DNA from: an uncultured Gammaproteobacteria bacterium
GTDB lineage: Bacteria; Pseudomonadota; Gammaproteobacteria; Steroidobacterales; Steroidobacteraceae
Direction: 5' to 3'
Length of the DNA: 64,000 bases
NCBI GenBank assembly: GCA_963743995.1
Contig: CAVUSC010000001.1
Location: forward strand, 3,355-67,354
This document shows positions 2,423 to 13,937 of the stretch, piece by piece. The first letter of the stretch is position 1; each line of letters begins with the position of its first letter. The notes under the pieces were generated by a model that worked only from the letters and a program-made list of their open reading frames with translations, ran no database searches and had not been told where the DNA came from. The position numbers were made by a program, and so were the translations under genes.

Positions 2423-2526
2423 GGGGGCGCGGTCCACCAGGAACCCATGGGCGAAGCAACGAAATCGACGGCACGCACCAACCTGCTCGGGCTCACCCGG
2501 GCGGGCTGGAAGCGTTCGTCGTCGAG

Positions 2527-3566
<1,040 letters not shown>

Positions 3567-5198: not shown

Positions 5199-6485
5199 AT
5201 GAGCGAAATCCTGCAGGCCGTCCGTGGCATGAACGACGTGCTGCCCGACCAGGCGGCGGCGTGGCACACACTCGAACGGGTGGCCCGCGAAGTATTCGCG
5301 CAGTACGGTTACCGCGAAATCCGGCTGCCCCTGCTCGAACGCACGGAACTCTTCAAGCGCTCGATCGGCGAGTTCACCGACATCGTCGAGAAGGAGATGT
5401 ACACGTTCCGGGACCGTGGCGACGAATCACTCACGCTGCGGCCTGAAGCGACGGCGGGCATCGTCCGGGCCTGCATCTCGAACGGCCTGCTCCACAACCA
5501 GCGCCAGAAGGTCTGGCTGATGGGCCCGATGTTCCGCTACGAACGGCCGCAGAAAGGGCGCTATCGCCAGTTCCACCAGATCGACGTCGAAGCGCTTGGT
5601 TTCCCGGGCCCGGACGTCGACATCGAGCTGATCCTCATGACGGCCCGGCTGTGGCGTGTGCTCGGGCTGCGCGGGCTCAAGCTCAACCTCAATTCGCTCG
5701 GCACGCCGGCGTCGCGGGCCGTTTATCGGGCCAAGCTGCTGGACTATTTCGGGCTGCATCGCGACGAGCTCGATGCCGACAGCGTGCGCCGGCTCGAAGG
5801 CAATCCGCTGCGCATCCTCGACAGCAAGAACCCGGCGATGACCGCAATGATCGCGGGGGCGCCCGCGATCACCGATCACCTCGATCCGGAGTCGGCGGCA
5901 CATTTCGCTACGCTCTGTTCGCAGCTCACGGCGGCTGGCGTGGAATTCGTCGTCAATCCACGCCTGGTGCGCGGGCTCGACTACTATTCGCGCACCGTGT
6001 TCGAGTGGGTCACGACGGACCTCGGCTCGCAGGACGCAGTCTGTTCGGGCGGCCGGTACGACGGCCTGGTCGCGCAGCTGGGTGGCGAACCGGTTCCGGC
6101 CATCGGCTGGGCGCTCGGCGAGGAGCGCATCGTCGAGCTGATGCGGCTGCAGGGGCTCGCGCAGGATTCAGGCAGCCCGGACGTCTACCTGGTACTGGCT
6201 GGTACCGCGGCGGAAGCGGCGGGCCTCGGGCTCGCCGAGCGTATTCGCGATGGCGCATCCGGCGTGCGAGTCGAGTCCAACTGTGGCGGCGGCAGCTTCA
6301 AGTCGCAGCTGAAGCGCGCAGACAAGAGCGGCGCCCGCATCGCGGTCATCGTCGGTGACGACGAAGTGGAGCGACGGGTGGCCGCGGTCAAGTCACTGCG
6401 AGGCAGCCAGGCCGTGCAGCGCGAGGTTTCTTTCGATGAGCTAGCAGCGGAACTCGACCGGGAACTGCAGGCGAAGCCGGCATAA
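5199..6485 (+). CDS. hisS: histidine--tRNA ligase
   Basis: [32 protein letters not shown] (class II motif 2), GGGRYDGL. ATG at 5199 lies inside the longer ORF. Confidence 0.95.
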
Positions 6486-11097: not shown

Positions 11098-11156
11098 GGG
11101 AAAATTGGGGACGCTCACCTATTACTGAGTAATAGGTGAGCGTCCCCAATTTTCCC
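11098..11156. terminator. 59-nt perfect palindrome (29-bp arms, 1-nt centre) between convergent metX and the M23 peptidase gene; likely bidirectional terminator
   Basis: GGGAAAATTGGGGACGCTCACCTATTACT-G-AGTAATAGGTGAGCGTCCCCAATTTTCCC, read directly. AT-richer than its surroundings. Confidence 0.6.
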
Positions 11157-11159
11157 TGG

Positions 11160-12062
11160 TCAGTTTCCTAGCATTAGTGCGGGATCGACCATTGCCCGGT
11201 TGACGCTCACGCCCCAGTGCAGATGCGGCCCGGTCACCCGGCCGGTGGCACCGACCAGACCCAGCACGTCGCCTTCCTGCACCACGTCCCCCGTCTTTAC
11301 GTCGATACGACTGAGGTGGCAGTAAAGCGTCAGCACACCCTGGCCGTGGTCGACGAACACGGTATTGCCGTTGAAGAAAAAGTCTCCGGTCTCAACGACT
11401 CGGCCTGCCGCTGGCGTGCGGATAGGCGTGCCGGTCGATGCCGCGATGTCCATTCCGCTGTGCGGCTTGCGCGGCAGTCCGTTGAACACGCGCCGCTTGC
11501 CATACGAATCCGAGCGCACCCCGGGCACCGGCACGGTCCAGCGCCACGTCGGTGACCGGCTCTCGGTGTAAGTGGCCAGCGCGCGCTCGGTGCGCTCGGT
11601 CTCGGCGTCGATGCGCTTGAGGTCCTCCGGCAGCGGTTCGGCCTTGCGTGGCTCGACCGTCAGGTTCTGGGTAGCGTACTTCCTGGGCGCGACGGTGAAC
11701 GCGATTTCGCGATCCTTGTCGCCGGTTTGCGGCGTCACGAGCTTGATCGTCTGTCGGCCCGGCTCAGTCGCGAGCGGAAGGCCGACGATCGCTTTCCAGC
11801 CGCTCGCGGCGCGAACGATCGGTGCTCGGTACTCGCCGAAGAAGACGGCGCCGGGTGATTCGGCGCCCGCACCGAGATCGATGATCGCGATGCCGCCGGG
11901 CACCCGCGTGTCGCGTGGCAACGCCACCTCGTCAGCAGCGCGTGCCGCAGACGAGGCGAAGCCAAGGATGGACGCGGCAACGCAAAACGCGGCGTATGCG
12001 GCCGCGGCGCGACGACGCAGAAGTCCGGGTCGGATTCCGGTCGGGCGGGCCGTCCGCGGCAT
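11160..12062 (-). CDS. M23 family metallopeptidase (secreted)
   Basis: HSGMDIAA and GPHLHWGV zinc motifs. Signal peptide MPRTARPTGIRPGLLRRRAAAAYAAFCVAASILGFASSAARA. ATG at 12062; the listed 608-aa ORF is an antisense-extended artefact. Confidence 0.85.
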   Translation of the reverse strand: MPRTARPTGIRPGLLRRRAAAAYAAFCVAASILGFASSAARAADEVALPRDTRVPGGIAIIDLGAGAESPGAVFFGEYRAPIVRAASGWKAIVGLPLATEPGRQTIKLVTPQTGDKDREIAFTVAPRKYATQNLTVEPRKAEPLPEDLKRIDAETERTERALATYTESRSPTWRWTVPVPGVRSDSYGKRRVFNGLPRKPHSGMDIAASTGTPIRTPAAGRVVETGDFFFNGNTVFVDHGQGVLTLYCHLSRIDVKTGDVVQEGDVLGLVGATGRVTGPHLHWGVSVNRAMVDPALMLGN

Positions 12063-12128
12063 GGACGCCGCGGCCGGAGCCCCCACGGATGGGTTTACGG
12101 CGTCCCGCGCGACCGGAATCCGACCCGG
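12025..12128 (+). repeat. REP/MITE-like structured element, copy 1 (19-bp perfect terminal inverted repeats, conserved ~60-nt core)
   Basis: CCGGGTCGGATTCCGGTCG (12025-12043) pairs with CGACCGGAATCCGACCCGG (12110-12128). The core is 56/60 identical to 13727-13795. Confidence 0.75.
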
Positions 12129-12181
12129 CCTCGGCGGCGCGTCAATGGCCGTGCGCAGAATTGTTACGAGCCTTGCGTTCG

Positions 12182-13612
12182 TCATTGCCTTGGCTTCGCC
12201 TTCTTCTTCGGTGCGGCTGTTGCGGTGCTGTCTGTCGTGAACACGTCCGTCACGTTCGCCCGAACGGAACCCCGGGCCACACGCACGTCGATCGGTGCCC
12301 CCGGTGCGAGCGAGGACACATCGGTAACGACGTGCGCACCCGCATCCGTCACGATGGCGTAGCCGCGCTCGAGGGTCGCCAGCGGACTCACGGCATTGAG
12401 CGTGCGCATGGCGCGTTCGAAGCGGTCGCGCGCAATCTGCAGTCGACGCTGGATGGCGGCTGGCAGGCGGTATTGCGCGACGTCCAAGCGCTGCTTCAGC
12501 GGTGCAATACGGCGCGCCGGACTGCTGCGGCCGAGGAGGGCTTGCGCGTTCGCCAGTCGCACGCGAGCGCGCTCGAGCCGGGAAAGCATCGCACGCTGCA
12601 GTCGCTGCTCGAGTTCGTCGAGCCGTTGCGCATGCTGCTGCAGCCGCGCGCGCGGCGACACGCGGTCGAGCGCTCGCTCCCACTGCTGCAGTGTCTGTCG
12701 CAATGCCAGCAGCCTGCGTCGCATCGCCTGCACCAGGTTGCGTTCGAATGCAGCGACCGCGCGCAGGTACTCGGCGCTGTCTGGCACGCTGCGTTCGGCC
12801 GCGCCGGACGGCGTCGGCGCACGTTCGTCGGCGACGAAGTCGGCGATCGTGACGTCCGTTTCGTGACCGACGCCGCTGATGACCGGAATGGCGCACGCAT
12901 GGATCGCGCGAGCGACCGCTTCCTCGTTGAAGGCCATCAGGTCTTCGAGCGAGCCACCGCCGCGGGCCAGGATCAGCACGTCGCACTCGCGGCGTGCATC
13001 GGCAAGTTCCAGCGCCCTTACGATCTCGCGCGGAGCGGCTTCGCCCTGCACGGCAACGGGGTAGACCAGGACCGGTACCGCCGGGAAGCGGCGTTTCAGG
13101 ATGTGCAGGATGTCGCGCAGTGCCGCGCCGGTCGGCGAGGTGATCACGCCGATGCGACGGGGCAGGGTGGGCAGCGGCTTCTTCAGCGCGGCCTCGAACA
13201 GGCCCTCGGCCTGCAGCTTGCGCTTGAGTTCCTCGAACCGTCGGCGCAGCGCGCCTTCACCGGCCTCCTCAAGGTGATCAATGACGACCTGGAACTCGCC
13301 CCGGGCCTCGTACAGGCTCACGCGACCTCGTGCGAGCACCCTGGCGCCGTCCTTTACCGGGAAACGCACCAGCATGCTGCGGTTGCGGAACATCGCGCAG
13401 CGGACCTGTGCCGACTCGTCCTTGAGCGAGAAGTACCAGTGACCCGATGCAGGGCGGGCCAGGTTCGAGATCTCGCCTTCGAGCCAGACTGAGCCCAGTC
13501 CGCGCTCCAGCAGCATCCGTGCCTGGGCGTTCAGCTGCGATATCGTGAACACTTCGCGCGCGGGGGCGGCCGGCGAGGGCGTTGCGTCGTCGTCGAACCA
13601 GGAGTCGGCCAT
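12182..13612 (-). CDS. xseA: exodeoxyribonuclease VII large subunit
   Basis: OB-fold N-terminus ([19 protein letters not shown]), [25 protein letters not shown], long coiled-coil C-terminus. Confidence 0.95.
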
Positions 13613-13705
13613 CTGGGCATCTTACCGGCCGGGGCACCCACCGGAAAACGACACGGCGCGGCCAAGTCGTTCGCCGGCCGGCTGCCACGCTCGCTGGCAG
13701 CGATT

Positions 13706-13818
13706 GCTCCGGGCTTGCCGGATCGCGGGCCGGGGCCGTCCGCCGCATGGACGCGGCGGCCGGAGCCCCCATGGAAGGGTTTACGGCGTCCCCGGCCGGG
13801 ATCCGGCAAGTCCGGAGC
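13706..13818 (+). repeat. REP/MITE-like structured element, copy 2
   Basis: Arms GCTCCGGGCTTGCCGGATC.. / ..GATCCGGCAAGTCCGGAGC differ from copy 1 but are self-complementary. Same core in the same orientation. Confidence 0.75.
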
Positions 13819-13937
13819 ACCGATGCCTTGTCACTGCGGTCGCACGGCCGGCAATCGACTTGGCATGCAACACTGGTTTTACCCCAGGCGCCCGGAGCGG
13901 GTACAATGCCGCGCTTCCTTTCGCTCCGGGTCGCCCA

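Follow-up and report, generated by a model that had tools for sequence, protein, structure and literature searches.

The 64,000-nucleotide stretch of gammaproteobacterial DNA analyzed here (the window) contains two copies of a long palindromic element that flank xseA, the gene for the large subunit of exonuclease VII, in the same orientation. Based on sequence comparisons, we consider both loci to be probable copies of a non-coding, non-autonomous mobile palindromic repeat of the YPAL/RU-2 type. The probability that we attach to this explanation, roughly 0.6, covers all of its parts, namely the family assignment, mobility, insertion by fold-back copying, selection on one strand and the start of the adjacent M23 peptidase gene. 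The constant part of the element is a head of ∼55–60 nt with two short hairpins, while the long stem beneath it differs in each copy. The element is a diverged member of the YPAL/RU-2 family, and is neither a repetitive extragenic palindromic (REP) element associated with a RAYT transposase nor a new class of RNA. Three features go beyond the published accounts of YPAL covered here (target-derived stems, a head that can flip and a wobble bias restricted to one strand), and they do not amount to a new kind of system.

The constant head and its copy-specific stems

The heads of copy 1 (12047–12106) and copy 2 (13733–13792), both read on the + strand, are identical at 56 of 60 positions, and the chance expectation for a 30-nt sub-pattern is 0.00 occurrences. 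A preliminary description of the region had proposed two same-orientation copies of a shared core of ∼60 nt, which these data bear out. It had also pointed to a compensatory change of one G:C pair to C:G in hairpin 1, and this is indeed present, as the hairpin reads CCGCGGC-ATGGAC-GCCGCGG in copy 1 (12054–12073, with a 7-bp stem) and CCGCCGC-ATGGAC-GCGGCGG in copy 2 (13740–13759). The second hairpin is CCC-ACGGAT-GGG in copy 1 (12082–12093) and CCC-ATGGAA-GGG in copy 2 (13768–13779). The self-complementary arms are specific to each copy, again as first described. Those of copy 1 (12022–12052 and 12101–12131) are 31 nt long and 90% complementary, with 19 bp perfectly paired, and those of copy 2 (13705–13734 and 13790–13819) are 30 nt long and 87% complementary; the arms of one copy cannot be aligned with those of the other. 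An imperfect outer extension of the copy 2 palindrome (13661–13864, unstranded) pairs 13661–13680 with 13845–13864 (20 nt at 90%). Each strand of either copy is predicted to fold as one long hairpin. The + strand RNA is the more stable, with −83.1 kcal/mol (z −6.9) compared to −80.8 kcal/mol for copy 1, and −91.3 kcal/mol (z −8.2) compared to −84.8 kcal/mol for copy 2.

The window belongs to a metagenome-assembled genome of an uncultured gammaproteobacterium (G000; 3.9 Mb, 66% GC, 79% complete), for which the nearest named relatives at the protein level carry the label Steroidobacteraceae. A genome-wide profile search, a check that had been suggested at the outset, found 16 copies in G000, all with the conserved core and each with private arms of 17–48 bp. 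The arms of these 16 copies are barely more alike than shuffled sequences (mean local score of 7.8 versus 6.6). This agrees with the original remark that they are unlike the terminal repeats of ordinary miniature inverted-repeat transposable elements, and the shared terminal inverted repeats and fixed-length target-site duplication of that class were not found. A different arrangement occurs in another uncultured gammaproteobacterium (MFD03804.bin.1.8), where five heads form a tandem array within one 8-kb stretch (L018, 44–952); the first three are spaced 147 nt apart, unlike the dispersed single copies.

Pairing in the family was assessed with 109 distinct sequences. The covariation score is 0.611, compared to 0.167 for shuffles (0/500) and 0.13–0.23 for slid controls, and 82.9% of cells are compatible with pairing, compared to 57.1% in shuffles. 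Changes on both sides are seen at all 19 outer-stem pairs and at 9 of the 10 pairs of hairpin 1, so that the further copies retain covariation and the suggestion that structure, rather than arm sequence, is maintained holds across the larger set. Hairpin 1 reaches ∼10 bp, and one of its positions is occupied by all four Watson-Crick pairs (CCGT..CG, CCTT..AG, CCCT..GG and CCAT..TG). Hairpin 2 (CCC-ANGGAN-GGG) is invariant among the 109 sequences because it was fixed by the search pattern. Its CCC/GGG stem is replaced by TAC/GTA in divergent copies of G000 and in RU-2 of Y. pestis, which supports the pairing of hairpin 2 over the alternative given by RNAalifold.

More than 120 loci from many gammaproteobacterial genera contain a 27-mer of the core, GAGCCCCCANGGANGGGTTNACGGCGT. 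Among the carriers are Stenotrophomonas, Xanthomonas, Yersinia, Serratia, Sodalis, Marinobacter, Microbulbifer, Rheinheimera and Zobellella, as well as many uncultured Gammaproteobacteria. Of 401 genomes sampled from the class, 12 carry it with at most one mismatch, in 1–84 copies, while the backwards control gave 0; forward and reverse counts are balanced in this sample. The family is thus a known one, widespread and patchy in its distribution.

YPAL, the Yersinia palindromic sequences, were reportedly described by De Gregorio et al. in 2006. The heads in the window align without gaps to the center of the published RU-2 of Y. pestis, with 38 of 60 columns invariant among the two window copies and two Yersinia sequences, which identifies the head as homologous to the YPAL/RU-2 center. 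RU-2 and YPAL are the same element, for which a 168-nt Y. pestis sequence is available (Delihas 2007, PMC2759123; see also Delihas 2008, PMC2229807). The similarity includes the central ∼60 nt, the same two hairpins and the same terminal ...TTTACGGCGTC. It extends to the general properties of long, stable hairpins that are present in multiple copies, mostly intergenic and at times read in frame as part of open reading frames (ORFs). Target-site duplications of YPAL vary in length (3–26 bp), and its targets have dyad symmetry at or close to the insertion point; junction repeats seem to vary here as well, and a 10-bp hairpin is present at the empty site of C35_70945, with none at the target of copy 1. 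In contrast, YPAL is ∼168 bp long (units of 130–169 bp) with arms conserved between copies, whereas the window elements are 104–115 bp long and have their own arms, and the head carries CCCCC/GGG here in place of CTACA/TGTAT in Y. pestis RU-2. In the YPAL/RU-2 literature covered here, we found no description of target-made stems (inverted duplication of the target), of in-place flipping of the head or of a wobble bias on one strand. The Rfam family Ysr224 (RF02770, Yersinia sRNA 224) also covers this head, and gives 94 bits for a Y. proxima locus retrieved by means of the 27-mer of the window; its model represents the strand opposite to the GGA loops and includes a Yersinia-specific arm. YPAL has been described as a curiosity of Yersinia, but its head is now seen to be preserved at nearly every base, from Yersinia through to Xanthomonadales-like and marine Gammaproteobacteria, while the stems are free to vary.

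Histories of the copies and the M23 leader

Related genomes allow the two copies to be placed in time. The xseA tree has the topology (G000,(G001,(G016,G003))), with G011 and G006 outside. Copy 2 is found at the same site in G001, G016, G003, G011 and a closer metagenome contig (L252, xseA 86% identical), has an inverted core in G006 and G012, and is absent from G002, G010 and more distant genomes. Its orthologous arms differ at many positions, with compensated changes on both sides. Copy 2 is therefore old, common to related species and flipped in some of them. Most other copies of G000 are likewise common to G001, G016 or G003.

Copy 1, by comparison, is present only in G000. The same block (12007–12102, + strand) is missing, with identical boundaries, in G001, G016, G003, G011 and L252, the last being the closest empty site; the boundaries are ambiguous by ∼3 nt due to a shared CGC. 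The block of 96 nt, or 32 codons, lies in frame within the ORF of the M23 peptidase, and its absence from these relatives identifies copy 1 as a lineage-specific insertion in the 5′ part of this ORF. On the M23 strand, the additional 96 nt are made up of 55 nt of head, 25 nt that repeat the adjacent upstream sequence in inverted form, and 16 nt of filler. The right arm (12103–12131, + strand) is native M23 5′ coding sequence, since it is present in relatives that lack the element: 25 nt are identical in L252, and it is recognizable even in G011. The left arm (12022–12046, + strand), in contrast, is the inverted copy of this native flank and does not occur in any empty site. Thus, an arm of copy 1 was made from the target, unlike the conserved arms of YPAL. 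The order on the M23 strand, 5′ to 3′, is native flank, head and inverted flank copy. The native sequence passes into the head through a 7-nt identity, GGGACGC (12100–12106, minus strand), where the native target equals the first 7 nt of the head. No pre-existing palindrome is present at this target in the empty site of L252. The only direct repeat is 7 nt long (GCGCGAC, 12007–12013 and 12107–12113) and is not flush with the ends.

This arrangement suggests a possible route of insertion in which a new site would receive a copy of the head only. A nascent strand could switch template into a donor head at a short match to the head end (GGGACGC), then fold back and copy the target flank, creating a new stem, before returning to its original template. 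Such an event would be a form of copy-choice rather than cut-and-paste transposition, and the stem would afterwards be kept by selection on the folding of the strand with the GGA loops. Fold-back copying would explain both the copy-specific stems in the genus and the lack of a tied transposase. In its fullest form, the proposal is that only the head moves, by end-primed template switching and fold-back, that the stem is then selected locally, and that the loops are predicted CsrA/RsmA docking sites, making the element a self-spreading, host-tolerated module that inserts by an undescribed route without a transposase. We regard this complete version as unlikely. If target-made stems formed by inverted duplication should prove general, they would represent a new route to long palindromes and to the mobilization of DNA without a transposase.

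Two further sites bear on the insertion step. C35_70945 is also found only in G000, and is, together with copy 1, one of two cases of filled and empty sites between close relatives that indicate recent mobility. Its right arm is native in the distal portion, and a 10-bp hairpin is present where G001 has the empty site; the junction is too diverged for exact placement. A wastewater contig (L253, ENA ERZ965210, 1173 nt) carries an element that agrees with copy 1 in its insertion point within M23 and in its orientation. The arm past its head mirrors its own native flank and is followed by a diverged direct repeat of ∼17 nt. In the same contig (L253:1–300), the left 120 nt match the contig's M23 5′ region perfectly in reverse complement, centered on the head. 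The purC gene next to C35_70945 (L255:600–1530, G000:C35) is split over two frames, either by an indel error or as a pseudogene.

Copies are also lost and inverted. C5_209012 is an old copy that is filled in G011, reduced to a remnant in G003 and missing in G001, where the intergenic region is deleted. At another site, filled in G016 (L154) and G006 (L257), the element is missing from G001 (L261, C26:73462–73472) along with its two arms and another 22 bases. The flanks at this site are 97% identical between G001 and G016, and the loss is a clean deletion of the whole palindrome. In-place flipping of the core, with the arms staying, is seen in L171 (G001) when compared to G000:C33:39712–39770 and L170 (G003), and a second time in L146 (G001) when compared to G000:C32:80328–80387. 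As the flipped head of the C33 pair differs at only ∼5 of 55 positions, the same copy was inverted and not replaced. Recombination between the arms is the simplest cause of such inversions.

The insertion of copy 1 also bears on the start of the M23 gene. The ORF of this peptidase of the MepM/NlpD type (11160–12185, minus strand; homologues with PF01551 and PF18421) follows xseA (12182–13612, minus strand), which lies between the two copies. The element places an ATG (12062–12060, minus strand; CAT at 12060–12062) in frame with M23 at the loop edge of hairpin 1. The preliminary description accordingly proposed that the element supplies the start codon. The position of this ATG is correct, but the proposed function is not supported by the homologues. 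Among 10 close ones aligned, several, from independent pipelines and including P0002 and P0006, start as MT(N/H/Q)A... from an ATG that overlaps the stop codon of xseA. The xseA (1074–2504) and M23 (2501–3430) calls of L252 overlap by 4 nt. The M23 orthologues thus start elsewhere and lack the element. The window retains the coupled ATG (ATGA; 12183–12185, minus strand) together with the conserved leader, and remains in frame through the element, which contributes exactly 32 stop-free codons ahead of the signal peptide; the alignment to P0002 shows gaps of 31 and 1 aa opposite it. In view of this intact, in-frame start, the element need not supply one. No Shine-Dalgarno-like sequence lies upstream of the ATG in the hairpin loop, and this codon is buried in a predicted hairpin of about −81 kcal/mol. 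Most likely, M23 is translated from the ATG coupled to xseA as a protein of 341 aa, with the element read as 32 extra residues before the signal peptide, and the ATG at 12062 (300 aa) is a possible secondary start. The coupled ATG and the signal peptide are in different frames in G001 and G003; these breaks were given no weight, because frame errors are visible elsewhere in these long-read metagenome assemblies. For annotation, an in-frame leader element such as copy 1 can mislead the calling of start codons.

Wobble bias and the GGA loops

Wobble pairs were counted in the outer stems on the strand that carries the GGA loops. Strand-symmetric mutation predicts G·T and A·C pairs at a ratio of 1:1. 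The arms contain 120 G·T versus 26 A·C pairs overall, 100 versus 24 with one sequence counted per arm cluster, and 85 versus 20 in singleton clusters; the copies of G000 alone give 15 versus 3. The wobble pairs are distributed along the stems and are not concentrated in the conserved stem base. The bias is found regardless of the neighboring genes (24:8 with two sense neighbors and 28:3 with two antisense ones), and it is not seen in two other hairpin families of G000 (53:51 in family B and 20:18 in family C). Mutational causes were rejected since the bias is unlinked to GC skew or gene direction, an artifact of the method since families B and C are symmetric, and repeated counting of relatives in view of the 100 versus 24 pairs per arm cluster. 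Polymerase G·T errors in a minus-strand fold-back were set aside as they predict the opposite sign. As only the GGA-loop strand tolerates wobble pairs, we infer that the stem is kept by selection on the folding of one strand. One strand, set by the head, is thus constrained to fold, which points to a single-stranded working form.

The loops of both hairpins are hexaloops of the form A-N-G-G-A-N closed by a C-G pair, reading C-A-N-G-G-A-N-G. The GGA of hairpin 1 is at least 90% conserved among the 109 sequences, even though it lies outside the search pattern, and CANGGANG is found in hairpin 1 of 78 of them. The motif in the hexaloops reads GCAUGGACGC and CCACGGAUGG in copy 1, and GCAUGGACGC and CCAUGGAAGG in copy 2. 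In hairpin 1 of copy 1, GCATGGACGC fits CANGGANG, and hairpin 2 provides a second such site 24 nt past the first GGA, the GGA-to-GGA spacing being 23–24 nt in the family. Two CsrA sites separated by 23–24 nt are within reach of one dimer, and a csrA gene is present in G000. Both loops match the CsrA/RsmE consensus (A/U)CANGGANG(U/A) of Schubert et al. 2007, in the form quoted in PMC6849547. The arrangement resembles the hairpins of the CsrB/RsmY/RsmZ type in having paired CANGGANG hexaloops on stems closed by C-G. It differs from them in that only two sites are present per unit, on a mobile palindrome and with no promoter. The likeliest role, which we put forward tentatively, is that the folded GGA strand would act as an RNA hairpin with two candidate docking sites for CsrA/RsmA; otherwise, this strand would merely be a stable hairpin or a passenger. 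Any such action, through CsrA docking or as a hairpin of RNA or single-stranded DNA, is what we infer from the sequence. The match is relevant to organisms in which Csr/Rsm decoys are poorly known.

Alternative explanations and other repeats

Several observations weigh against the explanation as a mobile YPAL/RU-2-type repeat with one selected strand. The window copies score 29.9 bits (copy 1, minus strand) and 18.9 bits against the Ysr224 model, below its gathering threshold of 70, with 23.1 bits in a small-region scan. The GGA-loop strand of copy 1 is the + strand, antisense to the M23/xseA mRNA, and copy 2 is located between divergent genes, upstream of the conserved −10 box of guaB. Element orientation is random with respect to both flanking genes (+E+ 15, −E− 21, convergent 15 and divergent 8, from crude ORF-based gene calls in two versions with the same outcome) and local GC skew (50 positive, 45 negative); consequently, an RNA role of the GGA strand would need transcription. 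Fold-back formation of the stem draws on one clean junction (copy 1 versus L252), one partial case (C35_70945) and one short contig (L253), and the perfect reverse complement at the left of L253 is probably a fold-back of the assembly. Between loci of Stenotrophomonas, Xanthomonas and Yersinia, arm sequences are conserved, indicating that they travel with the element, and fold-back copying therefore cannot be the sole route. Finally, the empty relatives at C35_92715 and at the site filled in G016 and G006 lack both arms, so deletion of the whole palindrome also occurs.

Some of these points would be expected if the element were purely selfish palindromic DNA without a strand-specific role, in which template switching copies arm onto arm and the head is conserved for the mobilizing machinery. 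The patchy distribution and burst-like copy numbers, the random orientation with respect to genes and skew, the flipping of cores between orthologous sites, the whole-palindrome deletion in G001 and the position of copy 2 in a region of divergent promoters, for which transcripts are not expected, all agree with such an origin. We consider it rather unlikely nonetheless, because conversion between arms is symmetric and cannot yield 100 G·T versus 24 A·C pairs tied to the orientation of the head, two other hairpin families in the same genome are balanced, and the exact CsrA-type octamer is retained in both loops from order to order, in spite of changing stems. The same loops and strand bias would also suit a free-standing small RNA (sRNA) gene at each locus, of the Ysr224 or TwoAYGGAY type, that acts in trans, for example as a CsrA sponge, and is not mobile DNA. 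The Yersinia version is filed as an sRNA in Rfam, and TwoAYGGAY (RF01731), a motif of gamma-Proteobacteria, has been rated a probable RNA (Weinberg et al. 2010, PMC2864571). TwoAYGGAY resembles the element in having two hairpins with AYGGAY loops, a pattern that copy 1 follows (AUGGAC and ACGGAU); copy 2 departs from it (AUGGAC and AUGGAA) as its last base is not Y. Membership by model was rejected for copy 1, with no match to the TwoAYGGAY covariance model at E≤10 on 12015–12140. Moreover, no conserved promoter or terminator accompanies the copies, whose flanks are copy-specific, Ysr224 is modeled on the strand opposite to the GGA loops, and copy 1 lies inside an ORF. Presence/absence polymorphism and in-place inversion fit mobile DNA instead, making a dedicated sRNA gene very unlikely.

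The interpretation given in the preliminary description, of a REP-like element mobilized by RAYT whose copy 1 supplies the M23 start and gates translation by sequestering the ATG, appears highly improbable. It has in its favor the in-frame ATG at the loop edge, the lack of any other ATG, GTG or TTG between this codon and the signal peptide, and the choice of the loop ATG by the gene caller on L253 (P0013, beginning MPRTARPT). It is contradicted by the element-free homologues with their coupled ATG, kept here upstream of 32 codons without a stop, and by the burial of the loop ATG with no Shine-Dalgarno-like sequence before it. REP/REPIN elements with RAYT were reportedly treated by Bertels and Rainey in 2011. 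REPs are short palindromes whose stem is conserved and which carry a GTAG or CGTC tag (Di Nocera et al. 2013, PMC3733652). The window elements share with REP/REPIN sequences the GC-rich, intergenic palindromes and compensatory stem changes, but have copy-specific stems and conserved loops, no tagged short palindrome of this format and no link to a Y1 transposase. A search for RAYT/TnpA(REP) genes, also suggested earlier, gave no match to PF01797 (Y1/RAYT) in either G000 or G011 (79% and 99% complete, respectively); G011 also carries copies. The core is instead the YPAL/RU-2 center. The label REP-like was dropped and the RAYT link rejected. PF01797 occurs in 14 of 21 genomes of the genus, at one or two per genome. 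These Y1/RAYT genes more likely go with family C, a REPIN-like family with conserved arms AAATAGGGGACGCTCACCTATTTCC, variable loops and dozens of copies genome-wide.

Family C is represented in the window by a 59-nt perfect palindrome (11098–11156) between metX and M23. A weak match to the core (5217–5250), within the coding sequence of hisS, was attributed to chance. The in-frame position of copy 1 recalls the Rickettsia palindromic elements and in-frame RU insertions (Delihas 2007), where a palindrome is inserted in frame without destroying the gene. The Rickettsia elements are unrelated in sequence, and copy 1 is located in a leader before a signal peptide, not in a folded domain.

Family B comprises 55 hairpins in G000 (e.g., C2:19833, C11:30793 and C15:129727) with the loop TGTCTGCCTTTC(CAA). 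Its outer arm, GCGGTCGATCCGG, is conserved, its inner stem is hypervariable yet perfectly paired, and it usually follows CTCAGGCGC. One spot is used by two hairpin families: a YPAL-type element lies at G000:C2:140787–140846, while the orthologous L168 (G001) and L169 (G003) carry a family B hairpin, which confounds this locus (C2_140845) as an empty site. At L169, G003 also retains what appears to be the decayed start of a YPAL head.

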